DNA from: Thraustochytrium aureum
Taxonomy: Eukaryota
Assembly (NCBI GenBank): GCA_012862495.1
Contig: BLSG01000092.1
Span: 101,776-137,260, forward strand
Length of the DNA stretch: 35,485 nt
Direction of reading: 5' to 3'
This document shows, one piece after another, positions 5,791 to 35,474 of this stretch; the first letter of the stretch is position 1; every line of letters begins with the position of its first letter. The notes beneath the pieces are model-generated. The model saw nothing but the letters and a program-made list of their open reading frames with translations, did not search any database and was not told the origin of the DNA. The position numbers were made by a program, and so were the translations under genes.

Positions 5791-5896
5791 CTAGCGAGCG
5801 AGCTGGCAGTAGCTACACGGATTGTGCGTTGTCTGACAGTGAGTCTGGCTCTGGATCAAGATACCGAAATCCAACCACCCTGCCTTCCTCCCTGCC

Positions 5897-6979: not shown

Positions 6980-7245
6980 CCCGTCGCCCGTCGCGAGGAG
7001 GAGCTCTGGCTGATCCGAAACGCGTGTTCCAGCGCCCCGAGCGCGGCCGAGCGAGCCAGCCCGCAAACCACCAGTCTTACAACCGAAAGCCGCCAGATCC
7101 CTCCCCTCCGGCGCCCAACTCCAGCAGCGCCGGGACCGCGGCCTCGAATGCGATCTGCTGCTCCTCGCCGGCCTCCTCGACCTCCGAGTCGCTCGCACTC
7201 GTCCTCTCCGGTGGTCCAAAATCATGAAACGAAGTCATCTTTGTT

Positions 7246-11500: not shown

Positions 11501-12877
11501 GACGCGGCCCCCTCGCACTTTCGCGCGGGCCTCAACAGCGGCGACAACCCCATTCCCAACCTGTACAGGTACGTCCTGCCGTGGGAGTCCGAGTTTGTGG
11601 ACTCGCAGCGCGTCTGGGCCGAGTACGCGCTCAAGCGCCAGGAGGCCAGCGCGCAAAACCGGCGCCTCACGCTGGAGGACCTCGAGGACTCGTGGGACCG
11701 CGGCGTGCCTCGCATCAACACGCTCTTCAGCAAGGACCGCCACACGCTCGCCTACGACAAGGGCTGGCGCGTGCGCACGCACTTTGAGCAGTTCCAGATC
11801 GCGCGACCCAACCCGTTCTGGTGGACCAACAACCGCATGGACGGCAAGATGTGGAACCTGAGCAACTATCGCACCGACGTCATCCAGGCCCTCGTGGCGT
11901 CGAGGGCATCCTGGAGCACACGCTCTTCAAGGGAACTGGGTTTCCCTCCTGGGAGGGGCTGTTCTGGGAGAAGNNNNNNNNNNNNNNNNNNNNNNNNNNN
12001 NNNNNNNNNNNNNNNNNNNNNNNNNNNNNNNNNNNNNNNNNNNNNNNNNNNNNNNNNNNNNNNNNNNNNNNNNNNNNNNNNNNNNNNNNNNNNNNNNNNN
12101 NNNNNNNNNNNNNNNNNNNNNNNNNNNNNNNNNNNNNNNNNNNNNNNNNNNNNNNNNNNNNNNNNNNNNNNNNNNNNNNNNNNNNNNNNNNNNNNNNNNN
12201 NNNNNNNNNNNNNNNNNNNNNNNNNNNNNNNNNNNNNNNNNNNNNNNNNNNNNNNNNNNNNNNNNNNNNNNNNNNNNNNNNNNNNNNNNNNNNNNNNNNN
12301 NNNNNNNNNNNNNNNNNNNNNNNNNNNNNNNNNNNNNNNNNNNNNNNNNNNNNNNNNNNNNNNNNNNNNNNNNNNNNNNNNNNNNNNNNNNNNNNNNNNN
12401 NNNNNNNNNNNNNNNNNNNNNNNNNNNNNNNNNNNNNNNNNNNNNNNNNNNNNNNNNNNNNNNNNNNNNNNNNNNNNNNNNNNNNNNNNNNNNNNNNNNN
12501 NNNNNNNNNNNNNNNNNNNNNNNNNNNNNNNNNNNNNNNNNNNNNNNNNNNNNNNNNNNNNNNNNNNNNNNNNNNNNNNNNNNNNNNNNNNNNNNNNNNN
12601 NNNNNNNNNCGCTGGCTGCGCTCCCTGGCGCTGGGGTTTACGATTCTCTGGAGGGGTCGATCACTTCTGTCGAGCTGCTCGAGCAGCCCGAGGAGTACGT
12701 CGGCCTCCTGGTGGACGGCAACCAGCGGTTCCTGCGCGACGACCTGATGGTCGTGCACAACAGCGGGTTCGAGACGAGCATGGTGTTCAAGAAGCTTACC
12801 AACGCGCAGCGTGCAGGGCTCAACCAGATCCCCAACCGTCGGTTCACGCTGTGGTGGTCGCCAACCATCAACCGAAG

Positions 12878-12910
<33 letters not shown>

Positions 12911-15248
12911 CCTGACGGGGATCTTTATGCACGGCAAGATCCCGACGCTCAAGATCTCGCTGATTCAGATCTTTCGTGCGCACCTGTGGCAAAAGATTCA
13001 CGAGTCGCTCACGATGGACCTGGCCCAAGTCCTCGACCAGGAGGTCGACGTGCTGGCCATCGAGACGGTGCAGAAGGAGACGATCCACCCGCGCAAGAGC
13101 TACAAGATGAACGTCTCGTGCGCCGACATCCTCCTCCTGGGGACGCACAAGTGGCAGATAAGCAAGCCCGCGCTCCTGCACGACAACCGCGACTCGTACG
13201 AAACCGAGGTGACCTCAAACAAGTTTTGGCTCGACGTCCAGCTGCGCTGGGGCGACTACGACTCGCACGACATCGAGCGGTACTGCCGCGCAAAGTACCT
13301 CGAGTACACCACGGACGGCATGACGCTCTACCCGTCGCCCACGGGCCTCCTCCTGGGCGTCGACCTGGCCTACAACCTGCACGGCGGGTACGGAAACTAT
13401 TTCCCCGGGCTCAAGCCGCTCATGCAGCAGGCGATGGCCAAGATCATGAAAGCCAACCCGGCGCTCTATGTGCTGCGCGAGCGCATCCGCAAGGGCCTCA
13501 GCCTTTTCTCCAGCGAGCCGACCGAGCCGCACCTCTCCAACCAAAACTACGGCGAGCTCTTTTCGAACCAGAACGTGTGGTTCCTGGACGACAGCTCGGT
13601 GTACCGCGTGGTGGTCCACACCACGCTCGAGGGGAACACAACGACCAAGCCAGTGAACGGCGCAATCGTTGTCTTCAACCCGCGCAGCGGGCAGCTCTTC
13701 CTCAAGGTGGTCCACACCTCGTCCTGGAGCGGGCAGAAGCGCCTGTCGCAGCTGGCGCGCTGGAAGACGGCCGAGGAGACGACGGGGCTCGTGCGCTCCC
13801 TGCCCATCGAGGAGCAGCCCAACCAGATCATCGTCACGCGCCGCGGCATGCTCGACCCGCTCGAGACGCAGATGCTCGACTTTCCCTCGATCGTGCTGCG
13901 CTGCAGCGAGCTGCAGCTCCCCTTCTCGGAGCTCTTGTCGCTGGAGCGCATCGGCGACCTTGTCCTCCGCGCCACCGACCCGCAAATGTGCCTCTTCAAC
14001 CTCTACGACGACTGGCTCTCGACCATCTCGAGCTTTACGGCTTTCTCGCGGCTCATCCTGATACTGCGCGCCATGCACGTCGACCTCGACCGGGCCAAGG
14101 TGATCTTGCGNNNNNNNNNNNNNNNNNNNNNNNNNNNNNNNNNNNNNNNNNNNNNNNNNNNNNNNNNNNNNNNNNNNNNNNNNNNNNNNNNNNNNNNNNN
14201 NNNNNNNNNNNNNNNNNNNNNNNNNNNNNNNNNNNNNNNNNNNNNNNNNNNNNNNNNNNNNNNNNNNNNNNNNNNNNNNNNNNNNNNNNNNNNNNNNNNN
14301 NNNNNNNNNNNNNNNNNNNNNNNNNNNNNNNNNNNNNNNNNNNNNNNNNNNNNNNNNNNNNNNNNNNNNNNNNNNNNNNNNNNNNNNNNNNNNNNNNNNN
14401 NNNNNNNNNNNNNNNNNNNNNNNNNNNNNNNNNNNNNNNNNNNNNNNNNNNNNNNNNNNNNNNNNNNNNNNNNNNNNNNNNNNNNNNNNNNNNNNNNNNN
14501 NNNNNNNNNNNNNNNNNNNNNNNNNNNNNNNNNNNNNNNNNNNNNNNNNNNNNNNNNNNNNNNNNNNNNNNNNNNNNNNNNNNNNNNNNNNNNNNNNNNN
14601 NNNNNNNNNNNNNNNNNNNNNNNNNNNNNNNNNNNNNNNNNNNNNNNNNNNNNNNNNNNNNNNNNNNNNNNNNNNNNNNNNNNNNNNNNNNNNNNNNNNN
14701 NNNNNNNNNNNNNNNNNNNNNNNNNNNNNNNNNNNNNNNNNNNNNNNNNNNNNNNNNNNNNNNNNNNNNNNNNNNNNNNNNNNNNNNNNNNNNNNNNNNN
14801 NNNNNNNNNNNNNNNNNNNNNNNNNNNNNNNNNNNNNNNNNNNNNNNNNNNNNNNNNNNNNNNNNNNNNNNNNNNNNNNNNNNNNNNNNNNNNNNNNNNN
14901 NNNNNNNNNNNNNNNNNNNNNNNNNNNNNNNNNNNNNNNNNNNNNNNNNNNNNNNNNNNNNNNNNNNNNNNNNNNNNNNNNNNNNNNNNNNNNNNNNNNN
15001 NNNNNNNNNNNNNNNNNNNNNNNNNNNNNNNNNNNNNNNNNNNNNNNNNNNNNNNNNNNNNNNNNNNNNNNNNNNNNNNNNNNNNTCCGCTTCCCCCGCG
15101 CGCTCGACTTTTCGCTGTCGTACGGCCACCCGCTCGAGTTTTTCCACCCGCAGCACCGCCCGCAGCACTTGCTTCCTTCCTGAGCGGCGGCAGCGGCGAC
15201 ATCGACGAGCTCGCTCCCCAAGAAGACCTCGACAACCCGCTGGCCTAG
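8545..15248 (+). CDS. PRP8: Pre-mRNA splicing factor Prp8 (N-terminus in gap, intein-containing, apparent 1-nt frameshifts)
   Basis: Collinear Prp8 signatures: [83 protein letters not shown] and C-terminal [14 protein letters not shown]. Frame breaks at ~9650, ~10826, ~11895 and ~15168 are each repaired by adding one base. Confidence 0.97.
11974..12761 (+). mobile_element. Intein at the PRP8-a site (only the last ~50 aa visible; the rest is in an N-gap)
   Basis: Non-Prp8 sequence lies between GLFWEK (ends 11973) and SGFE (starts 12762). It is in frame with the downstream extein and reads ...[35 protein letters not shown]. This matches intein blocks F/G with penultimate His, terminal Asn and +1 Ser. 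Confidence 0.92.
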
Positions 15249-16343: not shown

Positions 16344-18220
16344 CTAGTCGTCAAAAAGGCGGGGCTTGGCGGTACCTCGGGGATCGCGCGGCTTGCGGGA
16401 ACCTCGGTTGAAAATCGCGTTGCCTTCGCTGTCGTCAGAGTCAGAGTCGAACAGGCCCTTTACAGCGCCAAAGCGCTGGCCAGCGCTAGACCTTGCGCTT
16501 GCCCCGCGCCGAACCGAGCCGGAGTCCGCCAAAGCAGAGTCACCAGCCACGCCTCCAGCTTGCGGTTGCGCCAAGTACGCGAAGAGGCCGCTCCCGTCAT
16601 CGTCCGAGTCAGAGTCAGCGAAGAGCGCCGCGAGCTGCTCGGCCTTCGAGACCGTCGTCGTGATTGGCCCATCGGCGCCGTTGGCCTTGGCTGGCGCGAC
16701 CAACTGCAAGTCATCCTCGCCCTCGCTGTCGGCAAAAGGCAGCTTTGACGTGTTCGGCTCGCGTTGCCCCGAACTCGTCCCGTGAGAAGGGGAGGCCGCC
16801 CCAGCATGGCTTTCGTCGTCGCTTTCGAAAAGATCTTCGCGACGGCCTGCGGCCGAGGTGATTGCTGGGGCAGGCGCTGGCGGACACGCTTGCTCGCCAA
16901 GCGGCCCACCGCCTGTCGTGGCTGAATGTCTTGCTTCCTCTGCTACGTGCTCGNNNNNNNNNNNNNNNNNNNNNNNNNNNNNNNNNNNNNNNNNNNNNNN
17001 NNNNNNNNNNNNNNNNNNNNNNNNNNNNNNNNNNNNNNNNNNNNNNNNNNNNNNNNNNNNNNNNNNNNNNNNNNNNNNNNNNNNNNNNNNNNNNNNNNNN
17101 NNNNNNNNNNNNNNNNNNNNNNNNNNNNNNNNNNNNNNNNNNNNNNGCTGGGGCGGCGCGGGGCTTGCGCGAAGCATTCGAGGGGGCCGCGGGGGCGGCG
17201 CGCCAGGCTCCGCCCGTGTAGGTGGTGTAGGTGAAGCAGCAGAATTTTGCGGCGGCAACGGCGGCGGCGTGCCAGTCTCGAAGCTCTTTGGTCGCTCGGC
17301 AGAATCGCGGGGCGACGGTGAGAGGGGCGCCGGGGCGGGGAGCGCCAAGTCTGCACGGGCTTGCGGGGGGCTGCCCGTCTTGGGCCCCGGCCGGGCAACC
17401 CGCGTCTGGCGACAGCTGCAGCAAGCGCTGCTTTAAACGCCATTGCGGTGTCCTCGCCACGCGCCTCGCTTGTGCTGACCAAGCCAGCAGGGCCATCGCC
17501 GTGCGCGTCCAGGGTTGCCGAGTCACGCCGTGGCCGAGGCGGTGAGTCTTGTGCTGGCAACGTTTCACTCCCTCCACCGGCGAGCCCGGAGTGTTCGGCG
17601 GCTTCATCGGCAGGCTGGGGCTGTCGATCAGAAGTAGACGCGCTTGGGGTTTCCCCGAGCTCTTTGGCGTCTTGCTCCCGCGCAGGGAGCTCGCCTTGGC
17701 TAGCGTTGTCCTCTTGGATACCGAGCCCGACTGCAGGGTCCTCCTCAAAGGCCCGCGTTCCAATTACAAGCGGCAGCCGTCGATCATCATACACAGCGCG
17801 GTCGATCGGGCCAGCGTCGATCGCCGAGAGGCCGTCTCGCGCCGCAGCAGCGGCGTCGAGTACGCCAAGCTCCGCGTCGAAATCGATAGAGAGGGGGCTC
17901 GGCTGCCTCGCTCCACTCTCGTCCTCTTCGAACACGCGGCTCTCCACGAACTGCGTGTTCGACAAGAGCCTGAGCTCATTGTTGGCATTTTCCAGCGCGA
18001 TCCCTGCGGCGGCGGCTTCATTCTCCACCGCGGCGAGCTCCCGTTCCACCCGCCGTGCGCCGTCCTCGAACCTGCGCACCAACGCCACGAGCGCATCCGC
18101 GAGCGCGGCATCAGCGGCCCTCGACCACCCAAGCCTCTCGACGTTCCTCGCGCTCGCCGCAGTCTCCCTGGCGTTGCGCGTCTCGTCTCGGAGCCGGCGG
18201 AAAGCTGCGTCCACGCCCAT
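16344..18220 (-). CDS. WASHC2: WASH complex subunit 2 (FAM21-like)
   Basis: N-terminal head motifs WSRAADAAL and LRLLSNTQFVESRVFEED match FAM21 WSLAAD and LSNTQFIENRVYDE. A Pro-rich linker and several LF-acidic motifs follow (LFESDDE, LFADSDSD, LFDSDSD, LFDD*). One apparent frameshift at ~17350-17430 and an internal gap. Confidence 0.82.
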
Positions 18221-18673
18221 CGTCACGGCAAGCAAACCCACCACGCCAGGGCCCGGCACCGCCCGGCGCAGCAGCACAGGCCGCAGCAGGACAGCCGACG
18301 CTCGCTCGAGGGCCACGGGGGCGCGCACGCAGCAGTGCGCCTACGGAGTGGAGTTGAGCTCGAGCAAGGAGTCCAGCTCGACCGCCACCACGCCAGGTCG
18401 CCGTCCCAGCGCACGTCACCAGCAGCGAGCGACGCAGGCCGGCCGGGCGAACAAACAACGCAGCCGCGCAGGCTGCTGACGCAGGCTGACGCAGGCTGAC
18501 GCAGCTGCGCCGAGCGAACAGCGCGAGCGCCGCCTGCGAGGAACGTCGACTGCGTGTCCGACGTTAAAGGGCGAGAAAGCGCGAGAAAGCGCGAGAAAGC
18601 GCGGGCGTGCTCGGAGGAACGGAGCGCTCCTGACGAGGTCTGCGAGGCGCAGGCCGAAGACGCCGCTGCATCG

Positions 18674-18704: not shown

Positions 18705-19587
18705 TGCTGTTGAATGAAAGAATGCGCTGTTTTTTGTTGCATTTTCTTTGATCAAGATGATGGGCTGGCAGAGCGCTGTGCAGATAGATGTCCAGATGGC
18801 ACTCGTGAGCTGGTTGCAGCGGTGAGCTGGTTAGCGGGTGATAGTAACACGGCTTTCGCTCTCGTCCCGAGAATAACTGTGAATAACTGGGTAACTGTTG
18901 GAGAGTTTGAGGTGGGTCGTCACCGCACTGGACAACGGAGGATTGGAGCGCGGACGCGAATCGCAGCATCGCAGCGTACAGCGCCAGAGCGCCTACGGCA
19001 AGCAAGACAACTCCTCCTCACAGCCAGCCTGCATGTCTCTACCTACAGGTGGACCGCGTCACTCGCGGCCTTGGCGTACAAGGAGCTGAGCAGCACGCCC
19101 GCGCCGACCATGCAGCACCGCTCGCACCTTGGCCGGCGCAACCTCGCTGAGATCGTTCGCCTCGAACTCAAGCTCTAGCTAGCCAGAGAGCCACTGCAGC
19201 GCCGTCGAGCTGCAGCGCTTTCGCCGCAGGGCAGCGCCAAAGCAGAGGCTGATCGGCTCGCCAAACTTCCTCCTGTCCGGTGAGTGAACGAACGGTAACC
19301 ACCTACTGGCCTACAATCGATGGAGTAGCCCAAGACAACTTAAGACAAGAGTGCCCAGTGAAGTCTGTCAGAATCCTCAGAGCTTCTCGCGACAGTAACA
19401 GACCACCAAACGCGTTGGACGCTGGCTTGCTGTTGATCGGCGAACGGCCGCACGGGCTACAACGTTGCTGTGCTCAAGGCCTTGGCCTGCACGGCCGAGC
19501 GTGCTGCCACTCGCTGGACCTCAGTTCATGCTGATACGTGCCAAAGGCTGGCCCTGCCGTGTTGAAGAGCCGCGCCGCCGCTGCGCG

Positions 19588-21953
19588 ATGATCGGGGACG
19601 CGTCGGGTGAGCAAGCGAGGTGGGGGGCCAATGGCGAGGCTGCCAGTGTCTCGATGGACATGAAGGATGCCGAAGCGCCGGACGCTGCTGCTGGAGAGAG
19701 AAGCGGCGGGGAGTCGGCTGGCGCGCCAGGGCTGCGCGAGCTGCTCGGCATCGAAACGTGCGACGTTGTGCTCAACAACGTGGCGATGGAGAAGCTGCTC
19801 CACCCGGTGAGCCTCACGCTGGAGAGGGGCAAGGTCGTCCTTGTGACCGGCCCCAAGATCGAGAAGAAGAAAAGCGGCGCGTCTGTTCTCCTGCAAATCG
19901 TTTCGGGTCGCAAGCAAATGCACGCCGCAAGCGGGGCTGTGACAGGCGAGGCCTTCGCGCTGGGGCACAAGCACAAATTCGACTTGCTGAAGACCAGAAC
20001 ACCAATGCTCCTGAACAAGACCACGCTCTACCGGAAGACGACCCCGGCCGAGACCCTGCAAGCCGCGCTGGTCATGGACGGTCAGTGCGATGCAACGGAG
20101 AGAGTCCGCGCGTTGAAGCTTGCCGAGGACGAATTCGGGCCGATGATGCAGGACGGGTTGCTGCTCAAGAAAGGAGTCCACGTCGGAGACAAAGAGGTGG
20201 ACACAGGCGGCATCACGCGGGGACAAAATTTGTGCTGCCAGTCCATGAGAGAAATCAGCTCCCTGGACCGTCGCAAGCTCGAGTTCGTGGCTCACTTCCT
20301 CCAGGGGCGCCGACCCGACACAATGACCATGGTAGAATCCAAGGAGCTCGTGTACACCGAGATGGTCAAGTACCTCGCGTTCATTCGCGACGTTTGCACT
20401 TCTTCCCGCAGGACGAGTGCGCTAGTTCGCATCAAGGCGCTGCATGGCCGATTCCTGCATCTGTGCGACACCCTCGTCATCCTCTCGGGGCCAAGCGTGG
20501 TTTACATTGGCCCTCCGGGCGCATTTCGGCGCCATGTGGACAACGTCCTGCTGTTGCCGGTGCCGGACGCTTTTAGCGCGACCGAGTTCGTTATTGATCA
20601 CACCGACAAGATGCTACACCCGGACTGCGACCTTGATGCGATCGAGGCAAAGTTCTGGGAGACGAGCGACGCGCAAAGCATCGCGCAAGAGGCCACGGCG
20701 CGGGCTGCCCAATTGGAAACCTTGGAGCCCAACGACCCCCAAACGTTTCGAGAGGGGTTCGAGCTGTGGTGGATGCAGGCCATCGAGGTATTCTGGCGCA
20801 CGCATCGCAATTACGTGCGTACGCCGGGTCTCACTACGCTACGTTGGCTGCTCTATGTTACGTTCGCGGTGATGACGGGGATTATCGCCATGTCTCCGAG
20901 CGCGCTCGCTGCGAGCGACCGCATCTGGTTGCTCATCGCAGGCTTCGACTTTACTGTTGCAGGTAGGTGTCTCCCTTTGCTTGGCGTGGCTTGCTTGGCG
21001 TGGCTTGGCGTGGCTTGCTTGGGGGTGGCGTGGCTTGCTTGGGGTGGCGTGGCTTGCTTGGGGGTGCTTGCTTTGCTTGGAGGTGGCGTGGCTTGGCTTG
21101 GCGCGGCGTGGCTTGCTTCGCTTGCGGATGTTTTTTTCGCTCGCCCGTTGCCGTCTCTAACATCCATCTCCTCTCGCTGCGTTTCGACCGCTATGGCAGC
21201 CAGCTTATTCGGCATGTACGCACTGCGCTTGGAACGCAAGACGCTCTTCCGCGAGTGCCAAAACAGGCGCTTGTACTTGTCCGCCTGGCACGTGGGCCAC
21301 TTCCTCGGCTCTGTGCTTGGCGTGCTGTACATAAGCATCGTGCCGGGGCTCCTCTTCTTTTACTTGATGCAGCTTGACACGTTCTCGCGCTCTTGGGAAG
21401 CAGTGGCCGGGTTCGTTGCGACCTACTACTTTATGCTATTGCTCTGCGAGGCGCTCTGGACCATGGTCGCGTTTGCCATTCCGCAAAAGAAGCGGAGCAC
21501 TGTAATCGCCTCGTTCTTTGCCCTGGCGTTCGTCCTCGGCCAGGGCGTCTTCACCAAGCTGGCCAACTTGCCAGCCAACCGCTATGTGATGTTTGTCACG
21601 ATTTTCCGGCCCGCCATGACATCGTTCTTCGCCAGGCAGTTCGCTGGCGTCGAGCCCGTGTACTACCTGCCGCAGGTGTGGCAGGCCGATGTGGATGCGT
21701 GCCAGCTTCATCCGACCGACTCGAGAAACTGGACCTCGCCGCAGGTGCTGGGATGCCTCAATGTTACCGTGTGGAATGGGAAATGTCCTGTTGAGCCGGC
21801 GAACGGTCTTCGGTGGACTGGCGACGAAGTTCTGAGTGCCTTCAATTCAAGTCGAATGGCGTGCTTGCGATGGAGCTCATCACCATTCTCATCATCATCT
21901 TCATACGAATCATCACCTACTTGATCGTGCGATGGCAAATCCGCAGAATCTAG
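19588..21953 (+). CDS. ABCG-like half transporter with degenerate nucleotide-binding domain (two exons)
   Basis: NBD-then-TMD order. LLHPVSLTLERGKVVLVTGP, LCDTLVILSGPSVVYIGP and ERKTLFRECQN..Y match ABCG landmarks. Intron at 20963-21199. The last TM helix (LAMELITILIIIFIRIITYLIVRW...*, stop 21951-21953) is reached by a 1-nt shift at ~21843. Start codon is uncertain (19588 or 19654). Confidence 0.75.
20963..21199 (+). other. Spliceosomal GT-AG intron, 237 nt, filled with a (GCTTG/GCGTG)n repeat
   Basis: Donor G|GTAGGT, CTAAC branch-like motif at ~21157, pyrimidine tract, acceptor GGCAG|. Removal keeps the frame and gives FDFTVAASLFGMYALRLERK. Confidence 0.85.
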
Positions 21954-22305: not shown

Positions 22306-25300
22306 TCAACTTGTGGCCGGGGATGCTTGCGCCGCCACCAGCATCTGCACCAACCTCGTTAGCTCGGTAACTTGCTTAGTAAGGGCTTGGACGTCCTCTG
22401 CGGTTCCCTGCTCATTGGAACGCTTCTTGGCGCCAACTGCGCGCTCTTCGTCAACAACGTCACCATTCCGCTCGCTATCGGGGCGATAACTGGAGTGCAG
22501 AGCAGCCGGCTTCTTCCAATGCTTGATGCCGTCCTTGCCTGTGAGCAGCACATGCGGGTGCCAATACTCGATGTTGAAGGCGTTCTTCTTGGTTAGTTTG
22601 CCATAGACTGCGTGTCTGAGGCTCTCTTCGATTCCCTGCGTGATAATCTCCTCCCAGAGCCTGTCGCTCGCCGACCTGCAGTTTGGGTAGACGTCCGTCA
22701 CGACGGCAATGAGAAGGTTGAGCGTGATCGTGGCAAAGAGAGTAAAGAAAACCGACAGAAAGGCCCCGAGCGACCCTCCCTCGTCGACTTGTTCCATGAT
22801 GCCCCAGGTCTCCACAAAGGGCGTGAGGAAGAGCGACTCAAAGGTGGCCAACGTCGTCGAAAAGCCGGTACATTGGCCCCAAATCCGACATGGAACGTCA
22901 GGGCGAGCAAAAAGTAGGCGGAAGCCACCACCATGAGGTATATCAGAACCGCTGGGTGCGACATGGTGTTTAGCAGCGCCACGACGACAGGGCCGATGCT
23001 CGGGATCGTCCGAGCCGCATTGAGCAGCGGCAACATCGAGATGAAAAAGTAGACTGCAAAGGTGCGGCGCTCTACCTCCAAGAGTCGGTGCACGTGGCTG
23101 AGCTTGGTGACCTCGCTCGTCACGTAGTCGCGGGCCACGCTTCGTGTGACCTCGTAGATATACATGTCCAGCACGAGGATACCCACGAGCAACAGCGCGG
23201 TGAGCCAATCGGCAGGTTTGCCGCGGTTGCGGTTCCTTCTGGAGAGCCAGCCGCGAAGCTTGGAAAAGCAAAACGCCATCACGATCACAGTGAGGACGAG
23301 CTGAAACGTGCGCGAGGGGGGGAAGCGCCCATACCCGAGCCGAAAGGGCAAAACCCTCACCGTAATCGTGGGCACCCCAACAAATGACGAGACAAAGTTG
23401 ACCTGGGCCACCCCGTACACCTCAAGGAAGGGGTTGTAGAGGTTGAACTCCAGGTCGAGTTGCTGCACGCCGCCGTTTTCAAGCAAGCTCTGCGAAAAGG
23501 CGTCCATATCGGTCAAGTTTGACGCTCGCTTCACCACAAACGTGGTCACGTTTGGGCTGAGGTCCATGTCCACCTCTGCGTCAACGTCGGCGTAGTCGTC
23601 GCGAAGTGCGTAGTGCGTGTGCGCCTCGAGCGTCAGGCCGCCAAACACCAGGTTGCGCCCCAGGAGTGTCGTGCGGTTGTGCTTGAGCGCGAATTTGCCC
23701 TCCACCAAGCCGTGCTCTAGCCAGCCGAGAAACGAAGCAGGGTCCTCGATCGCCTGTGTGGACTCGCTCAGGTGGTTTGACATGCGCTCGGCCCATTCGC
23801 GCTCTGCGGCGAGGTTGTAGTCGGGCGCGAGCTGGACCACAAAGATAAAGCTCAGGATCATGGCGAGCAAGAGCGAGGTTTCGCGCACAAACATTTTGAT
23901 CGCGCACTTTCTGCGCCAGGCGCGCACTTTGGCGCTCTCATTGAGGACGGCAACCATGCGCGAGGCATGCGTGCGCTCCAACTCGGCCTTTTCAAGCAGC
24001 TCATCGAGTTCACGCGTGCTTGCGTGGACCTGCTTGTCGTCGTTGCGGTGAAACCCGAAAAAGTTGGTCAGCCTGCTGTCAGCCCTTCCCATGAGCTTTA
24101 GCCGCTTGCCGAGGATGTGCCCCCCCCCTCGGTGCTTTGCGTTGCCTTGGCTGAGGCCCGCCTTGGCCTCACCAGGCCCATCGAGTGCGCCGGGCGGGGC
24201 GGCCTGGTGGCCGCCAGAGGCAGCCTCGTTCACGTCAACGCCCTCCTCGTCCGTAAAGTACGCCAGGCCAGATCCTTGGCGCCCAGACGCAAAGCGCGGG
24301 GCATTTCCGGGNNNNNNNNNNNNNNNNNNNNNNNNNNNNNNNNNNNNNNNNNNNNNNNNNNNNNNNNNNNNNNNNNNNNNNNNNNNNNNNNNNNNNNNNN
24401 NNNNNNNNNNNNNNNNNNNNNNNNNNNNNNNNNNNNNNNNNNNNNNNNNNNNNNNNNNNNNNNNNNNNNNNNNNNNNNNNNNNNNNNNNNNNNNNNNNNN
24501 NNNNNNNNNNNNNNNNNNNNNNNNNNNNNNNNNNNNNNNNNNNNNNNNNNNNNNNNNNNNNNNNNNNNNNNNNNNNNNNNNNNNNNNNNNNNNNNGATCC
24601 ATGTCGAAGAGGACGCGTCGGCTGATCTGCTCCTGCAGGTATTGCACCTTCTCCGTCAGCTCGATATGCCTGAACAGAGCGCGAACGTAGGGACTAAACA
24701 TGCTGCCCCGCGTCCGGTTCCCGTCGGCCTGCATTGGGTTTCCGCCGTGCTTGATGAGCATCGCCACAACAGCGATATTGTTGGAGCGCACTGCCAGCGA
24801 GAGGGGCGAATAGTCGCCCAACTTGAGGTCGCTCAGGTTGTCGGTGACGTGGCGCGCTGCTTCGGAGGCGCCAATTTGCGTCCCGTCCGAGTTGGCGCTC
24901 ATGAGACTAAAGCGCGGCGTGCTGGCGTCGCTGCGACCCGCCGAGCCGCGCGGGGGACCGAGGCGTCTCAGAGAGCCCCGTTGCTGGAGCCGTGAGCTGG
25001 GCGTTTGAAAGGTCCAGCGGATTGATCTTGGCAAAGGTCCGCTTGGAGACCGAAGCCTGGACGAAACTGCGAAGCAAGCCGATGGGGCGGATCCCAGGCG
25101 CTGGGTTTGACTTTGACGCGTCGCGCGGGCTCGTCCTGCTTCGCGGCTCCTCGGTGGGCGAGAATGCCTCGCCCTTGCTTAGAAACCCGAGAATGTTCGA
25201 GTTGAGGTCGACAATCTCGTTCGTCTGGTGCTCCTGCTGCAGCCGCTCGGTGAGGTATCTGCACACCTCGTCGTGGCCTTGCATTGCCGCATGGTGGAGC

Positions 25301-28300
25301 GGCGTGAACCCCATATTGTCGTTGACGAGGATGCGCGCAGAGTTTTGCACGAGTTCCTGGCAGAGACGAAGGTTGCCCAGGTAGGCGCACATAGAGAGCG
25401 GAGTGAGCCCGTTGATGTCGCGGATCTCCACGTTGGCCCCCAGGTGAAGCAGCCGGCGCGCAGTCTCAAAGTGGCCGCGCTTGATTGCGATGTACAGCGG
25501 AGTGTGCCCAAACTCGTCGATCGCGTTCAAGTTGGCGCCAGCGTGCATGCTTGTCCGCTTGCTGAGGAGGATGTTGACAGAGTTGATCTGCCCGCGGCGC
25601 ACAGCCGCAAAGAGGTACTGGTTGAACAATTTGCGCCGGATGTGCTTGAGCTGCCGGAAGGCAAAGTTGCGCTTTGCTTGGCCATCAAGGGAGGTTCGCC
25701 GCGGCGCTACTGCCAAAAGCTGCGAAGGGTCCTCGTCGGGCTCCTCCGCGATCGTCTCCCGTGCACGCCGAGGCTGCAGCTGGGTGCCACGGCCTTGCCC
25801 CGAGCGGGCCGGTTCCAGCGCCGAGTCCACTGTCTGCAGTTGGGGCGACTTGGGCGGGGGCGGGATCACCTCCCATCCAAAGTGCAGGATAGCTTTCAGC
25901 GTCTCTTCTGCGCCGAGCAAGAGCTGCGCCTTTTCATGCTTGTCCAAGACGTCGTACGGAACGAGCGACGAATTTAGCTTGAGGCCCTTTTTGATGTTGC
26001 GCGCCGGCGCGTACCTGAACCCTTGGCGGATCTTCTCGCTCGCCCACACCTCGTGGCTGTTTGCCGCCAACATGTTGACAAGTTTGGTCAGCTCGGGAGG
26101 AACGGGCACGGCAGACGTTTGGATAGTGGTGCACTCTGGGAGCTCGGGGCGCCAAGCGATCTCGGCGTACTTTGCCCCTGAGGGGCCTCCGCGGCCCTCT
26201 TCGCCCCCGCTCGGCCCGCTGCCGCTCCGCCGCCGTGGCGTCGAGCTGTTGTTAGTGTTGGCCATGAGCATAGCCACGACGCTCTCCCGCTTTTGCTTGT
26301 TGAGGTCAGCGACCTTGGTCAGCAGACTGGTCGGCGAAGCCTCGCCGCGGTCCTTTTGCTCCTCTTCCAAGACAAGGGGGCTTGCTGGAGCAGGGACGCC
26401 AGGGAGTGCGCCTAGCGGCGGGGGCGACATCGAGGCGCGCTGGCCGGGCCGTTGCAGCTCGTAGCCGAGCGCCACGATCACCTTGATGGTCTCGCTGGCC
26501 ATGTCGAGGTTGTACTTGGTGCCCTCGTACGAAAGCGAGCTGAACGGGAGCAAATGCGGGTGGAGCTTGGCCTCTTCGTCCTTGTCGCGCCCGTACGCCC
26601 ACCCTTCGTCAATCTTGGACTTGGCCCACACATTGTGATTGTTTCGAGCGATCATCGTGCACAACTGCGCCACGCTGTTCGCGATGACCACCGCCGAGGT
26701 GCTGATCGGATTGGGCAGAAACCGGTACCCCTCGAGCTCGCGCGTGTCGGTTGCAGGCGTTGCGCAGCACCTGTCCCGGTTGCACTCGCAGTGCGTGTTG
26801 ATGCTCCCGCAAAACGTCCAGCCCTTGTCAGGGTTGTGCTCGCGGTCCAGCGGCGAGAGGTGCTTGCGACACGACTGCTCGCCATGGCACCGGTCCTTGC
26901 AGACGAGACAGACGCTTTGGCCGCAAAACTCGCACTTGTACAAGAACTGCGTCACCGTGTTGTTGTAGCTCGCAAAAGAAAACGTGCACGTCTCGGGGTG
27001 CTCCATGCGCTGCGTCATTTCCACGAGGGTGTCGTCGATCGTGATACCGTTCTCGTCGGCAAAGTTGAGGATGCTCTCGCACGCCTCCACGTCGCCCATC
27101 AATCAAGGCGTGCAAGANNNNNNNNNNNNNNNNNNNNNNNNNNNNNNNNNNNNNNNNNNNNNNNNNNNNNNNNNNNNNNNNNNNNNNNNNNNNNNNNNNN
27201 NNNNNNNNNNNNNNNNNNNNNNNNNNNNNNNNNNNNNNNNNNNNNNNNNNNNNNNNNNNNNNNNNNNNNNNNNNNNNNNNNNNNNNNNNNNNNNNNNNNN
27301 NNNNNNNNNNNNNNNNNNNNNNNNNNNNNNNNNNNNNNNNNNNNNNNNNNNNNNNNNNNNNNNNNNNNNNNNNNNNNNNNNNNNNNNNNNNNNNNNNNNN
27401 NNNAGGTCGAGCTCGGTGTCGTTGGTGGTCCGCACGGGGAACGTTGACGCGTATTTTGTGCCGCAAGCCCTTTTTTCAGGACCGCGCTCAGCAAGAGCTT
27501 TTTCTTGTGCCCGTTGGAGACGGGCTGGTGGCTGTCCAGCACTGCGCGAACCACTTCGGACTTGCCATTGAAGGCAGCAAGGTGCAGGAATGTGACGCCA
27601 GAGTTGGTGATGGAGTTGATCGGAAGCTGCGCCACGTTTTCGTACCCGTCGAGGCAGCGGCTCCAGTCCACGCCTGCAAAGCAACCCGACTTTGCCGCAA
27701 AGTGCAGGCTGTTCCAGGCCTCGCTATCGCGCTGTGCGAGCAGGGCGAGGCGGTCTTCAACGTCCCGCTGCGAGCGAAGAATGACCTCGACTGTGGCGGC
27801 GTGCTCTTGCGAGTCGCTCATGCAGGCAAACATCACGGCGGTCTTTCCGTACGTCGACTGGGTCTGAAGCAGCGACATTGAGGGCTCGTAGGAAAGCAGC
27901 ATTTCGACGCAGTCGCAGTCTCCGTCTCGCGCGGCGTACATGAGTGCCGTTTTTCGAGACTGGCGCGTCTGGCCGTACAAGAGCTCGCGCTGCTGCTCTT
28001 CCGTGGCGGCATCTAGAATCATCTCGATCATCTGCAGGCGCACGTGCCGTTTCTTGCACGAAATAGCCAGAATGACGGCGTTCTCGTCCTTTTTCGTTCG
28101 CGCGCAAAGGTCGAGGGCGCCTTTGGCATGCTCAAGGAGCAGCTCGAGGATGTCCACATTGCCAGTCTCGCAGCAGGCGTGCAAGGCGTTTTTGCAGCTC
28201 CATGAGCACAGCTCGTTGATCGAGCCCTGCGCGATGAGGGCGTCCAGCTTGGCCCGGTCAAACGTCATCGCGGAGAACACGAGCGACTCGTACAGGTCGT

Positions 28301-29063
28301 CGACGTCTTCGAAGATCGCGTCTGTCCAGCCAACTGCGCGCCGTGTGAGCTGCAGGCTGCCGTTGATGGTCAGTTTGCGGTCCTCCAACGAGCCGATTTC
28401 GGGCCCGTCCGAGCGCACGACGTGGATCTTCTCAAACTCGAATTTCTTCAGCGCGCCCGCGACGCTGTCGTCTTGGATGCCACGGCAGCCGTCCTCCACG
28501 AAAAAGACTTCGACCCCTTGCATCAGGATCTTGGCGTCCAGCACGGTGTATTGGACGCAAAAGTCTGTGGCCAGTCCGACGGCGTAGATTTCGGTGACTT
28601 TGTTCTCCTCCAGAAGGTCGCGCATCTCCGTGAGCTGCGAGCTCCCGTTGTCCTTGAATACTGAATAGCTGTCGCGTTGCGGGTTGCAGCCCGCGTAGGT
28701 CCAGATGTCGCTGGTTTCGGTCAGCAGGTCTTTGTGCAGCTCGGCGCCGCGAGTCCCTTGCACGCAGTGGTCGGGCCACATGATCTGTGCGTCGCCGGTC
28801 GTAGGGAGGTGGATAACCTGGAACACGGCTGACCCGGGGTTGTTGGTCCTGAACGAGCAGTGGTTGCACGGGTGCCAGTCCAAACACATGTAAATGTAGT
28901 CGAACGCCTTGCCGCGCAGCCGGTTGATCACGGGGATGATCGCCTCTGCGTTCGGCACGGCCAGGCTGCCGTCAATAAAGTCATTCTGCACGTCGATGAT
29001 CAGCAGGGCGCGTACAGGCTCCCTCTGCTGGGCTCCTTTGCCGTTCTGTGGCAAGCCGGCCAT
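22306..29063 (-). CDS. Large multidomain cation channel: nicotinamidase-like + ankyrin repeats + UBR-like Zn finger + 2 RyR domains + ankyrin repeats + polycystin (PKD2/TRPP-like) channel; PKDRR-like
   Basis: PncA motifs IIDVQNDF, LDWHP, WPDHCVQGT and GLATDFCV. Ankyrins (KTALMYAA, HTPLYIA, FTPLHHAA). Cys/His finger (YKCEFC..VCLVCKDRCH..HCEC). Two RyR domains (IARNNHNVWAKSKIDEGWAYG..HPHLLPF; LAANSHEVWASEKIRQGFRY..LVPYDVL). PKD-type FNLYNP and S6 LNLLIAVVTDVY. Joined across two gaps and about four apparent frameshifts, so the single-gene model is inferred. Confidence 0.8.
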
Positions 29064-29803: not shown

Positions 29804-31774
29804 TCAGACCTCCCCCAAATTCAACGTGCGCCCCGACGCGCCGGATACAGGCCGAAATGTGAAGCGAGGCGTCACGAAACGAAAAATCACGCTCGAGAAA
29901 CGGTTGTACCGCGATGACGGTGGGGGGGCAGGGCTTTCGCGCGGAGACCCCGGCCACGCAACAGGGTTTGCCGCAGGCGCGCGATGCTGATTGTCACGGC
30001 CGTACCCGCTACCTTCAACCTGCCCAGGTGCCGCACTACGCCCGAGCGTCGAGGATGAGGTAATGGACATGCTCGAAAAGGAGTTGTGCGACATGCGCCG
30101 TGCCACCATGACCGCGGTGGGTGGTGGAGCGAGTCCATCGGCAAACTTGCCTTTGCCACCCCCGTAGGGGTTGGAGGAAGCGAGCTCCAGCGCCTCCAGC
30201 GCGGCCATCTCCTTCATTCTTTTCCGCGTGACCAGCAGAACAGCCCCAGCAAGGATGACGCAGACGCCGCCGATGCTCCCCAATCCGATGTACAGATAGT
30301 TGAGGTCATCGCTGCTTCCTTCCGGTTTGGGGTCAGTGTCTGTACCGCCGCCGCCACCAGCATCTCCGCCATCTCCGCCGCTGCCGCCGCCTCCTGGCTC
30401 GCTCGGTCCTGGCGTTGGCTGCAACGGGGAAACTGTCGGTGAAGCGGTCGGCCTTGACGTTATGGGCAGGCGGCTGACAAACATTGACACCACTCCAGGT
30501 GCCTCTGGCGCGTTCTCTCCCTCCCACATCGAAATGCAGCCGACGCCCGAAACGCATGCCAAATCGACGTCAAGCGACTTGAGACCGTTGTGGCCGCCGA
30601 AAGCCTGGGGAGTGCTCCAATTGAGACCTTTGTTCGCCGAAACCGAGAAGGCAGGGGCGTATCCGCCATTCGAGTCGATTTCCCACACCAGCACGCAGTA
30701 CGTATTGTCAAAGCAGGCGATTGCAGACTCGTCCTCGTGAAGTCCGCCAAGCTGAAGCGCGAGGCGTTGCAGCTGCCCGAACGTCTGGCCCCCGTCGGCA
30801 GAATGAGCATACTCGACAAACGGGCGTGACGCTTGGCCAGAAGCAATGTCTTTTGTCCTAGCATCGCATGAAACCGTGCACGCGGACCCATCTTCCACGC
30901 AAGCCACGTCAACCTCGTCGGCCAAGAGCAGGGTGCCGCTTCCTTGCCCACTGAGGTGTTCTGCTGAGCGCTTCAAAGCAGTTGGAGTCGAAAATGTTGC
31001 GCCACGATCTGTTGACCGCACTGTGGCCACGAAAGTCGTGCCATCGCCCGAGTTTGAGGCGTCGCCGTTCACGACAATACCAATCAAACACACAGCGCCG
31101 TACTCGGCGCAAGCAATGCGCGCCTTGTGCACGGCGAAACCGCCGCCTTGCGTCGTCACAGGCTGCGGGGCCACAGCGAAGGTTCGAGCACCGTTGACGG
31201 AGCGCAGCAGAAGCAGCCTCTTGTCCGGAAGCGTTGTGCTCACGACGACGAGGCATGAGAATGCGTCTTTCTGGGGGCCCACCACGCCAGGAATAGCAAA
31301 ACAGGCGATATCGGGCATCCAGAACTTGCCGTGGTCGGCGGCAGCAACGGGAGCGCGCTCTGGGGCGGTCCACTGCTTGCCTGCATTCACCGAGCGCGCC
31401 GTGAATATTTCCTGGTCGTTCTTTGGGCTCCACACGGCGCCGCAGAGTCGCTCGGTGGCGGTCTCAAAGCACGACAGTTTTGGCAACTCGTTGTACACGA
31501 CGTCTGAGGCGAGCACGGAGGCAGCCGACCAGGTCACGCCAAAGTCGTTCGAGGTGCCAAACATGATGTTGCGGTTCGTGGACGATTCCGAAGCCTTCTC
31601 AAACAGCGCGACGCATTCCCCGTTGGAAAAGCAATGGAGCACGGGCTCCTCCAACGTGAGCGTGTTGGGGCCCTCGCGAAACACAATATCGCTCCCCGAG
31701 AAGCCTTCCACGGACCGCCAGAGCCCCGTGGCAGCCACAATCGCGCCAACCAGCGATGCGGCCCGAGGCCTCAT
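29804..31774 (-). CDS. Type I membrane protein with Cys-rich BNR/Asp-box repeats (sialidase-like propeller)
   Basis: Signal peptide MRPRAASLVGAIVAATGLW. Asp boxes SNDFGVTW, SVNAGKQW, SVNGARTF, STDRGATF, SADGGQTF and SANKGLNW. Pro/Thr stalk PTASPTVSP, TM helix YLYIGLGSIGGVCVILAGAVLLV, then a cytoplasmic tail. Confidence 0.85.
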   Translation of the reverse strand: MRPRAASLVGAIVAATGLWRSVEGFSGSDIVFREGPNTLTLEEPVLHCFSNGECVALFEKASESSTNRNIMFGTSNDFGVTWSAASVLASDVVYNELPKLSCFETATERLCGAVWSPKNDQEIFTARSVNAGKQWTAPERAPVAAADHGKFWMPDIACFAIPGVVGPQKDAFSCLVVVSTTLPDKRLLLLRSVNGARTFAVAPQPVTTQGGGFAVHKARIACAEYGAVCLIGIVVNGDASNSGDGTTFVATVRSTDRGATFSTPTALKRSAEHLSGQGSGTLLLADEVDVACVEDGSACTVSCDARTKDIASGQASRPFVEYAHSADGGQTFGQLQRLALQLGGLHEDESAIACFDNTYCVLVWEIDSNGGYAPAFSVSANKGLNWSTPQAFGGHNGLKSLDVDLACVSGVGCISMWEGENAPEAPGVVSMFVSRLPITSRPTASPTVSPLQPTPGPSEPGGGGSGGDGGDAGGGGGTDTDPKPEGSSDDLNYLYIGLGSIGGVCVILAGAVLLVTRKRMKEMAALEALELASSNPYGGGKGKFADGLAPPPTAVMVARRMSHNSFSSMSITSSSTLGRSAAPGQVEGSGYGRDNQHRAPAANPVAWPGSPRESPAPPPSSRYNRFSSVIFRFVTPRFTFRPVSGASGRTLNLGEV

Positions 31775-32852
31775 CGTCAGGTGCCTTCTGCTCTCGCGTC
31801 CGCGCCTTCCGCCTCGGATGCGCGACGGCGCGGCCAGAGACGAAAGGGAACTGCCTGTGTGGCCTACGCGTTCGGCGACCGCGCACACCCTGCATGCGCT
31901 TGGCGTGGGCGAGTGCCGTCGGCCCATGCCAGCCACTGGCATGCCAAAGAGAGAGAGCTGCGGCGTCGTGAAATCTCAAACGAGCGCCCTCTGGCACTCG
32001 CTGGTTGCTGGGCGAGGCGTGGAGGCCTGCCCGAGTAGCCGCGTTGTCGGTCGGTCCTGCCTTGCGGGTCGAAATGAAGGAGCGTGGGCCTTCTGGAAAG
32101 CAGGACGAGGTGCCACCGCGTACGGTACTCTGCCANNNNNNNNNNNNNNNNNNNNNNNNNNNNNNNNNNNNNNNNNNNNNNNNNNNNNNNNNNNNNNNNN
32201 NNNNNNNNNNNNNNNNNNNNNNNNNNNNNNNNNNNNNNNNNNNNNNNNNNNNNNNNNNNNNNNNNNNNNNNNNNNNNNNNNNNNNNNNNNNNNNNNNNNN
32301 NNNNNNNNNNNNNNNNNNNNNNNNNNNNNNNNNNNNNNNNNNNNNNNNNNNNNNNNNNNNNNNNNNNNNNNNNNNNNNNNNNNNNNNNNNNNNNNNNNNA
32401 GTAGGAGCCTACTCGAGCTACTCTCGAGTAAGCAGCTGAGTATGTCCGCCAGAAGACCTGGGTGCTCCGTTCACGGTTGGTCTGGCGTGCGACCAATTTG
32501 TGCACGTGGACGCGTTGATTGATTGAGCACCGGTCCAAAAGACTGCAGGCTCGGAGCAACCGGTTTCGCCGTCAATGAACCGTTCAGTGTGGATTTGGCG
32601 TTTCCACGTCGCGAGGCCGAATGGCACGGGGAGTCAACACTGGCCGAAACGAGCTTCGCGCAAGACGCACTGGTTTGTGTTTCTGGTCGGCTCGGCACGC
32701 TGGCGAAGAAGCGAGCGACGAACTTCAAGAAAGAAGAAAAGCAAACCAAACGACACGCGATTTACCACCTTCTGTTCTGATTCTCATGAGGCTGAGGTCG
32801 AGCCCCTTCGCGGTTCGCAGGAACGACTTTCGCTCGCGACGAAGAAAACAGT

Positions 32853-34203: not shown

Positions 34204-35474
34204 GTCCTGCAAACCCAGTTCGCAGGGTAATTGCTTTGCGTTCGTCGGACGGGGCGAGAACGTTCACGCTCGTCACAGAGCTTGCAAGAGACGCGCCAGG
34301 GACCAGCGGCCCCACTAACCCACGCGTGTCTTGCACGAAGAATGGGTCGACCTGTGTGGCAGTATTTATGGCGGGAGAGTCGGACGGCAGCTGGGTGACG
34401 CAAACAAGCCAGTCGTCAGATGGCGGGCGCACCTGGAGTGGGCTGGCCAAGCTCGCCCCGTCGCTCCTGTCGCAAAGCCGCAAAGCCGCAAACAGGATCG
34501 AGTACTGGAACGCTCGGGTCAGCTGCTTCGCGACCACGTGCAATGTTCTTGCAGAGTCTTGGGTCTGGGTGCAGGAACAAGGCGACTGGTTCAGTCCGTG
34601 GATGGAAACCGCACGATCGACGGATGGAGGCCGCAGTTGGTCGACCTACACTGTTTTGCACCAGCCGACCGGTTTGGTGGAGGTGACGGACTTGGAGTGC
34701 TTCGGCTCGTCATTCTGCGCCGGGATCTGGATCGGGACGTCCAGCGTGGAGCGACGAGCGTATTTTGCCACCTCCACCTCGCTTGGGGAAACATGGAGTG
34801 CTGTTGCAGCCGTCACAGACATGCCGGTCGTCGACAGTTTCCAGACAAACTACGTCGAGCCGAGCGTGAGCTGCTCTGTGGGCTACGGTTGCCTCGTGGC
34901 GCTGCAGCGCATTTTGCCGTCACCCAACTCGTTTTGGATCGCGAAGTACGTTTTCGTTTCTGGGACTCCGACGCCGGACCCAGAAGTCTCGCCGACGAAG
35001 GCACCGACGCAACTTCCGAGCCCTGCCGGTGCCTCCATCGCGCCAACACCGGCACCTCGCGCCTCCGAAGAAAACTTTGACTCTGCCGCGCCAACGACGG
35101 CTTCCGAGAGCGACAGCTCGACGCTCGTCATTGCCAGCGGCGGCGCAGTCGGCGGCGCAGTGGTGCTTTTGGCTCTCGCCGTCACGACCAAGCGCCACTG
35201 CCGCGACAAGTCGAACGATTTGGGCGTTCTCCCGCACGGCCGAATCGCCCTCAGTACGGACAAGAGCGCGTCTCAAACGCGCTCTGCAGAGCCTGCTGAC
35301 GATGGTGCGGTCAGCGCCGACGTCCCATACGCGGTGCCGCTGGCGCAGCAATCACCAACGGCCAGCCAGGTCTGGGCAAAGTCACCACTCATTTTTCTGG
35401 CCCGCGCTGCTGCGACAGGGTTTGCAACCCGCCCGGTGAGCAGGGGCACGACTTTGTCAGGCCTCGACGTGTAG
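34204..35474 (+). CDS. Second BNR/Asp-box repeat membrane protein (5' part in gap)
   Basis: Asp boxes SSDGARTF, SSDGGRTW, STDGGRSW and STSLGETW, paired Cys per blade, PTKAPT/PTPAP stalk and TM segment VIASGGAVGGAVVLLALAV. Same architecture as 29804-31774. Confidence 0.8.

Follow-up and report, generated by a model that had tools for sequence, protein, structure and literature searches.

An apparently undescribed channel family in Thraustochytrium aureum and its relatives: a nicotinamidase-like domain lacking the catalytic lysine, RyR repeats and a predicted polycystin-type pore on one chain

Does a run of domains extending over ~6.8 kb of the minus strand in Thraustochytrium aureum encode a single protein, and, if so, is that protein a channel-enzyme? 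The locus lies in a stretch of 35,485 nucleotides (GenBank assembly GCA_012862495.1, contig BLSG01000092.1, positions 101,776 to 137,260 of the forward strand), which was analyzed as a whole and is referred to here as the window. A first-pass annotation, made from the letters alone, had described there a fusion of a nicotinamidase, ankyrin repeats, a zinc finger, two ryanodine receptor (RyR) repeats, further ankyrin repeats and a polycystin pore. Our analysis indicates that one gene encodes the whole nicotinamidase-to-pore fusion, which we regard as near certain, and that it belongs to a conserved and apparently undescribed channel family. The catalytic lysine of the nicotinamidase-like domain is replaced by alanine, which argues against an ordinary enzyme.

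The coding sequence begins with an ATG at 29063, the first in-frame methionine after a stop, and the reading homologous to the relatives ends with a TGA at 22306. From the N-terminus the domains follow in the order nicotinamidase-like, ankyrin, UBR-box fold, two RyR repeats, ankyrin, and a polycystin-fold pore (S1, TOP domain, then the helices up to S6). This order, as claimed in the first-pass annotation, was borne out by Pfam matches and by tblastn with three relatives whose architecture is carried in a single open reading frame (ORF); these align collinearly over the full span, with the pieces in order and at 36-64% identity. The features of the gene are as follows.

22306-29063, minus strand: whole coding sequence, ~2136 amino acids after allowing for four one-base assembly errors and two gaps
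28401-29018, minus strand: nicotinamidase-like (PncA/Naam-like) domain; Asp24, the metal ligands Asp62, His64 and His99, and Cys169 kept
28692-28694, minus strand: Ala124 codon at the catalytic lysine position (alignments to 2wt9, 9u8m and 29iv)
27404-28220, minus strand: first ankyrin-repeat block, running on through gap 1 (Pfam, tblastn)
27471 and 27436, minus strand: one-base errors within the first ankyrin block
27104-27403, minus strand: assembly gap 1 with its unreliable edge
26755-27009, minus strand: Cys/His zinc finger of predicted UBR-box fold (predicted fold and Cys pattern)
26461-26730, minus strand: RyR repeat 1; His, Trp and His kept (26637, 26628, 26562), with Asn (26511) where RyDEP has its catalytic Asp
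25867-26136, minus strand: RyR repeat 2; His and Trp kept, second His changed to Asn
25201-25671, minus strand: second ankyrin-repeat block (Pfam)
24952, minus strand: one-base error in a homopolymer run of a low-complexity linker
24651-24809, minus strand: third, short ankyrin block (Pfam, tblastn)
24312-24595, minus strand: assembly gap 2, in a poorly conserved linker
23823-23879, minus strand: S1, a predicted transmembrane helix preceded by a long pre-S1 helix (model and hydropathy)
23331-23820, minus strand: beta-sheet domain of TOP/polycystin type linking S1 to S2, predicted to be extracytosolic
22881-23300, minus strand: predicted helices S2-S5 (model and hydropathy)
22863, minus strand: one-base error after S5, ahead of the pore helix
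22810-22860, minus strand: pore helix, then a filter candidate that lacks glycine and has Glu as its last residue (alignment; Ion_trans profile positions 171-239)
22696-22752, minus strand: predicted pore-lining S6, followed by a cytosolic tail (alignment and hydropathy)

The reading frame of the window is broken internally at 22863, 24952, 27436 and 27471. Contigs of run X1 (Logan) carry one-base indels at exactly these four positions, and since the indels fall where the frame changes, the breaks are attributed to assembly errors; introns at the breaks were rejected, as single-base indels explain them. In X1, gap 1 is bridged by 108 letters between 27103 and 27404, which together with three flanking bases make 37 codons, the number found in the relative P0001. 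Gap 2 is bridged in frame by 131 letters between 24311 and 24596, the short side of the joint measuring 27 letters, below the 31-letter bar. The window also has a stretch of substituted sequence bordering gap 1, and the frame that carries the RyR repeats contains a stop at 24907-24909. The mended gene totals 6408 nucleotides, or 2136 codons, and the three closest relatives are 2101-2148 amino acids long. The X1 contigs have a depth of 4.3-5.5 and may derive from the source sample or a close strain, with 18 substitutions listed; the 14 in the coding sequence (7 synonymous, 7 non-synonymous) are uninformative. Runs X4 and X6 gave no contigs over 24150-24800, and X2, X3 and X5 gave short pieces only.

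The first-pass annotation had held that the ORF junction at ~22860 is fixed by one base; the X1 indel at 22863 agrees with this, while the three other breaks had been missed. It had also named real stop and start signals in the gaps (27118-27403 and 24312-24596), with separate transcripts, as grounds against the fusion. Both gaps proved to have in-frame lengths, and the relatives read through in one ORF; as the gaps are known by their lengths, it is the relatives alone that exclude an in-frame stop within them. Separate genes were therefore rejected and the single polypeptide stands. That separate genes were joined by scaffolding, or that the copy is decaying, might be suspected from the four frame breaks and two runs of N, but the X1 contigs remove all four breaks and 13 relatives carry the architecture in a single ORF. 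Frame errors of this type are common in the window, because the PRP8 gene (8545-14111, plus strand), used as a control, is likewise split over four frames and gaps, its PROCN domain being broken at profile position ~340. Moreover, the GC content at third codon positions is 0.72-0.81 along the whole gene. The artefact or pseudogene explanation is thus largely refuted and barely credible.

Sequence searches, together with region profiles over a set of 177 proteins, yielded 13 distinct proteins (P0001-P0005, P0009, P0032-P0034, P0040, P0075, P0086 and P0094) with the nicotinamidase-like domain, ankyrin repeats, finger, two RyR repeats, ankyrin repeats and S5-S6 on one chain, the finger profile having missed P0086; many further relatives in the set are partial. 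The named members among those looked up are two Hondaea fermentalgiana proteins (GBG29206.1 and GBG24003.1) and a complete MMETSP transcript, all three with the full architecture in one ORF, as well as CAK9073272.1 and partial members from Cantina marsupialis and Platysulcus tardus. We take the Hondaea, Cantina and Platysulcus relatives to be early-branching stramenopiles. No oomycete was found among the named members, which are too few to exclude oomycetes; the earlier suggestion that the fusion occurs outside them fits the closest named relatives. A paralogous branch, comprising P0034 (Hondaea GBG24003.1), P0032 and P0033, has a dead nicotinamidase-like pocket and a common C-terminal extension, which is also present in P0004; Hondaea thus has both pocket types. 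A metagenome scan reduced 49 pattern matches to two loci, of which L002 carries a fragment of a family gene that is split and probably contains introns, and L001 was rejected as a family locus, being an unrelated bacterial RyR protein. No description of the architecture was found in the literature searched, a scope that excluded most subscription journals and the domain tables S2 and S3 of the paper on PKDRR (polycystin channels with RyR domains).

The identity of the nicotinamidase-like domain is well supported, as the first-pass annotation had it: residues 19-209 match Pfam PF00857 (Isochorismatase, E 1.9e-19), and the domain matches PDB 2wt9 (PncA of A. baumannii, E 2e-44) and 9u8m, a nicotinamidase of 357 residues (E 7e-34). 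The NCBIfam model PRK11609 scored 167.4 bits against a cut-off of 174. A PncA-type Asp/His/His metal site and the cis-peptide motif are present by sequence. The PncA triad of Asp, Lys and Cys is incomplete, since Ala124 faces the lysine of the Lys-Gly motif in 2wt9 and 9u8m; an X1 contig over 28535-28769 supports this codon, with no other letter. Among 24 aligned family rows, 20 have a residue in the lysine column, and none of the 20 is lysine. In seven of them (the Thraustochytrium protein, P0001-P0004, P0035 and P0094) the residue is alanine and the Asp, Asp, His, His and Cys are intact, whereas the other 13 have lost further catalytic or metal residues while keeping the fold. The term channel-enzyme is therefore not supported as first used.

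Because the lysine is missing while the aspartate, cysteine and metal ligands are kept in seven rows, the alignment makes a pocket for binding or slow turnover more probable than an enzyme. In published work, the K104A mutant of the O. iheyensis nicotinamidase, whose triad is Asp-Lys-Cys, keeps 1.45% activity (PMC3581539), the Lys142Ala mutant of the related BiuH traps an acyl-Cys adduct (PMC5806882), and nicotinamide binds zinc via its free ring nitrogen (PMC6271260). As a free ring nitrogen is needed for metal binding, the ligand would be nicotinamide or nicotinate, and not NAD+. That the pocket binds nicotinamide without normal turnover is, in our estimate, slightly better than an even proposition.

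Nicotinamidase modules were also observed in other fusions. Two JGI proteins, P0006 and P0007, combine a nicotinamidase-like module with the same Lys-to-Ala change with a region resembling the ADP-ribose pyrophosphatase NUDT9, and also carry a SMODS-associated NUDIX or a cyclic nucleotide (cNMP)-binding domain. Two further proteins, P0010 and P0031 (Logan, ENA; 1749 amino acids), are TRPV-like channels matching TRPV3, Drosophila Inactive and TRPV6, with a C-terminal nicotinamidase that resembles 9u8m and keeps Asp, Lys and Cys; they are candidates for a true nicotinamidase-TRPV chanzyme, although they come from ~6-kb contigs and the fusion may be a gene-calling artefact. Both the NUDT9 fusion and the TRPV fusion of P0010 agree with a sensor of NAD+ products.

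Two readings of the Thraustochytrium pocket would retain more chemistry. In one, the protein is a true channel-enzyme that hydrolyzes nicotinamide usefully, the lysine being replaced by metal-bound water or by a residue of another domain, and the local sink shuts the channel. The intact Asp, Cys, metal ligands and cis-peptide motif would allow this, and P0010 provides a TRPV channel fused to a lysine-intact enzyme; the role of the lysine is itself debated, one proposed mechanism giving it to zinc-bound water (PMC5531466, PMC6271260). However, lysine mutants of related enzymes are nearly inactive, and the alignment of the seven intact rows has no conserved basic residue beside the alanine column, so that we consider this reading unlikely. 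In the other, specificity has changed: the cavity left by alanine fits another or larger pyridine or amide, or the exposed cysteine serves as a switch responding to redox state or acylation. Every row of the intact subgroup has alanine (7/7), and extra cysteines flank the site in most of these rows. Yet the best matches are all nicotinamidases, and P0035 and P0094 lack the extra Cys pair, which leaves a changed specificity with slim prospects.

The two RyR repeats named in the first-pass annotation are firmly identified (Pfam E 6.6e-47); what it overlooked is that they are candidate ADP-ribose or adenine-nucleotide pockets. Phage RyR-domain proteins bind or cleave 2'/3'-cyclic ADP-ribose (cADPR) via H75, W78, H100 and D117 (PMC13232231, a 2026 preprint), and Repeat12 of RyR3 holds AMP-PCP or ADP in crystals (PMC12627627). 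The phage protein RyDEP gp78 was translated from MN234187.1, the four residues were confirmed, and the sequence was then aligned to the family repeats. At the positions of H75, W78 and H100, repeat 1 of the family has His in 33 of 33 rows, Trp in 33 of 33 and His in 32 of 33, and at that of D117 it has Asn in 19, Asp in 10 and other residues in 4. Repeat 2 keeps the first His (24/24) and the Trp (23/24), and the second His in none of 24 rows. Repeat 1 of the Thraustochytrium protein thus has three of the four RyDEP ligand residues, and the set of a RyDEP-type cADPR glycosidase (the His75-Asp117 dyad, Trp78 and His100) is incomplete; with Asn in place of Asp117, binding would be likelier than hydrolysis. 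A tblastn search with repeat 1 against phages matched two unannotated records and did not recover RyDEP.

RyR repeats were encountered in several other settings. In P0008 and P0009 (Logan) an RGS domain is inserted between the two repeats, a possible link to G-protein signalling. P0165 (1299 amino acids) combines Ion_trans, a cNMP-binding domain and two RyR repeats, and is another channel type with such repeats. The bacterial protein at L001:7905-10283 (plus strand) starts with a RyR repeat and ends, by eye, in a cyclase-like region; it follows a membrane protein whose tail is TIR-like.

The polycystin-type pore of the first-pass annotation was upheld by fold search and by the relatives, since the window's own pieces gave no match to Pfam PKD_channel and only weak ones to Ion_trans (E 0.0009-0.007). 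An AlphaFold model of 22866-23987, built with 16 rows (pLDDT 78.9, pTM 0.72), comprises the pre-S1 helix, S1, the beta-sheet domain and four helices. All Foldseek matches shown were PKD2, PKD2L1 or PKD1-family structures (best E 6.8e-9, TM 0.40-0.53, 11-17% identity), and the Atlas neighbours of the same region of P0004 were PKD_channel clusters (score 0.96). Pfam PKD_channel was above its cut-off in P0003, P0040, P0041, P0051, P0075 and P0086, and Polycystin_dom was weak in P0037 (E 2e-4). The trait of group-2 transient receptor potential (TRP) channels (TRPP/TRPML), six transmembrane helices with a TOP-type domain between S1 and S2, is therefore predicted, and a group-2 TRP fold is very probable on the strength of the model. 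Hydropathy places no transmembrane segment before S1 in four of four full-length relatives, which predicts a cytosolic location for the N-terminal domains.

A polycystin fold might also serve as a non-conducting scaffold or accessory subunit that passes no ions alone, as could be argued from the filter candidate, which lacks glycine in the close relatives, and from the weak Pfam scores in the thraustochytrid-like group. S5, the pore helix and S6 nevertheless align to channel rows without large gaps, S6 aligning well; the filter candidate ends in Glu in most family rows, and S5-S6 is 46-66% identical in P0001-P0004. A non-conducting membrane part is accordingly highly improbable.

The zinc finger had been called UBR-like, and this received moderate support. 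Its eight cysteines are invariant in 26 of 26 rows, and its model (pLDDT 85.5) was matched by VIA to the UBR box of UBR4 (8j9q; Z 7.2, rmsd 2.5 A over 66 of 73 residues) and to UBR5 (Z 6.5), which were the best rows outside RyR, followed by 5.2; values of Z below 8 are moderate. Pfam zf-UBR appeared in four of nine proteins (E 0.004-1.6), always below the cut-off and not in the window's protein. Foldseek with a model of the finger and RyR repeats had only RyR rows among the matches listed, and the UBR box was seen by VIA.

We propose, tentatively and with a confidence a little short of even, that the protein is a TRPM2-like, polycystin-type channel gated by NAD+ cleavage products and not an ordinary enzyme. 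The link to NAD metabolites in the first-pass annotation would thereby be retained, as sensing of NAD+ breakdown products. Whereas gene, domain order and residues were seen directly, the folds and the topology are predictions, and the ligands, coupling and conductance are inferred. The likely cytosolic N-terminal part would do the sensing: the nicotinamidase-like pocket would bind free nicotinamide or nicotinate through its metal, with slow hydrolysis or a thioester hold, and the RyR pair would bind an adenine nucleotide (ADP-ribose, cyclic ADP-ribose, or ADP/ATP). The ankyrin blocks may act as a lever that passes occupancy to the pre-S1 helix and the gate, and a tetramer would pass cations, Ca2+ possibly among them. 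Dead-pocket paralogues would form subunits that are blind to the ligand or modulatory. In a more specific form, which we hold to be doubtful, these channels, an old stramenopile family, would be coincidence detectors for the two halves of cleaved NAD+: nicotinamide in the lysine-less pocket, where a thioester that decays slowly might act as a timer, and ADP-ribose or cyclic ADP-ribose in the RyR pair.

Several observations weigh against gating by NAD+ products, the strongest being the 13 of 20 rows in which the site is destroyed but the domain persists, as would suit a structural role. In P0001-P0003 the second ankyrin block is as conserved as the pocket domain (83-85% identity; 61-85% over P0001-P0004). 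The conserved His and Trp of the RyR repeats are a general mark of RyR domains, since PKDRR-like repeats, used as a control, have both in 24 of 24 rows and the Asp in 23 of 24; conservation therefore points to an intact RyR pocket and not to its ligand. AMP-PCP or ADP alone gave no detectable binding to RyR Repeat12 by isothermal titration calorimetry (PMC12627627). The K104A activity was obtained with protein refolded from inclusion bodies, as flagged by the authors (PMC3581539), and catalysis and gating are uncoupled in the TRPM2 of Nematostella (PMC6461439). At the membrane, the AlphaFold model spans pre-S1 to S5, the pore helix being placed by alignment and S6 by hydropathy and alignment, and the filter candidate lacks the glycine of PKD2 and PKDRR filters.

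A rival view is that the nicotinamidase-like domain is structural or protein-binding, with no small-molecule role, and that the gate responds to Ca2+, force, lipids, or N-terminal peptides on the UBR box. The rows with a decayed site include the second Hondaea paralogue, four further rows have no residue at the lysine column, and the UBR-box cysteines are invariant. A structural role would, however, leave unexplained the seven rows, spread over distant branches, that keep all other site residues together with the same alanine. Identity to P0001-P0004 is 72-80% in the nicotinamidase-like domain, compared with 46-62% in the first ankyrin block and 26-66% in the channel parts, and the module recurs on a NUDT9-type enzyme. 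We therefore consider a structural role rather unlikely and retain gating by NAD+ products as the working proposal.

The channel gene is accompanied in the window by several others. Convergent with it, 19399-21921 (plus strand) encodes an ABC-2-type membrane domain (E 4e-4) with an N-terminal part lacking a Pfam match; the product looks like a degenerate ABCG half-transporter. Divergent paralogous BNR-repeat proteins, each with one predicted transmembrane helix and 26% identical over 344 columns, are encoded at 29807-31975 (minus strand) and 34206-35471 (plus strand). ORFs with acidic Leu-Phe repeats occur at 16347-18340 (minus strand); the repeats recall what we take to be those of FAM21/WASHC2, to which Pfam gave no support. 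Further genes encode a protein kinase with ARM repeats (3-2063, plus strand), a B-box/WW protein split by a frame change (4619-5791, plus strand) and a WD40 protein (5900-7234, minus strand), presumably Bub3/Rae1-like.

Among known systems, PKD2 and PKD2L1 (TRPP) share the S1-TOP-S2...S5 fold and are the top Foldseek match, but they differ in filter, in sequence (11-17% identity) and in lacking the ~1,500 extra N-terminal residues; to our knowledge, TRPP channels have no N-terminal ankyrin, UBR, RyR or nicotinamidase-like sequence. The PKDRR channels, to which the first-pass annotation had related the protein, likewise join a polycystin-type pore and a tandem RyR pair in a stramenopile. As described, they carry the RyR pair after the pore and an LGA or AG(D/E) filter, are called oomycete-only, and are, with the RyRs, the only eukaryotic channels examined that had R domains (PMC7399828, PMC4820453). 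In the Thraustochytrium protein the pair lies ~700 amino acids before S1, the filter is of neither type, nicotinamidase-like, ankyrin and UBR-box domains are added, and the named relatives are from Hondaea, Cantina and Platysulcus. A quick tree built from 119 RyR pairs, the window's own repeats not among them, placed 24 family rows (one a near-duplicate) on one side of a branch whose SH-aLRT of 86 is short of the starred level; the 11 rows labelled PKDRR-like by channel-then-RyR architecture alone lay apart from them. Membership in PKDRR was rejected on the reversed order and the different filter, and the comparison reduces to resemblance. The family would be a third eukaryotic channel setting for RyR repeats.

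The His/Trp/His pocket of repeat 1 is shared with RyR Repeat12 and RyDEP, and mammalian RyR repeats 1 and 2 similarly have Asn at the RyDEP Asp and at the second His, respectively. The pore, in contrast, is not of the RyR/IP3R type; neither the GGGxGD filter nor RIH/MIR domains were found by filter alignment and Pfam. Whether RyR repeats read cADPR is an old question, reopened by the 2026 RyDEP preprint, and a compact RyR pair with an NAD-salvage-type pocket on one chain, in culturable protists such as Hondaea, makes it testable with small soluble domains. PncA, Pnc1 and Naam are alike in fold, metal ligands, catalytic Asp and Cys, and the cis-peptide motif, but keep the lysine and are not fused to a channel. 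A natural, conserved lysine-less nicotinamidase is a candidate nicotinamide receptor module, one that also occurs on a NUDT9-type enzyme.

Nicotinamide opens the invertebrate TRPV channels OSM-9/OCR-4 and Nan/Iav (PMC5064019, PMC9683716). There, too, the nicotinamide level is tied to a TRP channel, but the enzyme (Naam or PNC-1) is separate and active and the channel is a TRPV. The likeliest working analogue is TRPM2, a TRP channel whose fused NAD-metabolite enzyme domain works in invertebrates but is inactive in vertebrates, human NUDT9-H being catalytically dead (PMC6461439). TRPM2 is a group-1 channel with a C-terminal Nudix domain that reads ADP-ribose, whereas the Thraustochytrium protein has a group-2 fold, an N-terminal cysteine-hydrolase pocket and a RyR pair, and no homology is claimed. 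Coincidence detection, if true, would mean that the TRPM2 principle had been invented a second time, independently, and would provide a simple eukaryotic test of the ligands of RyR repeats.

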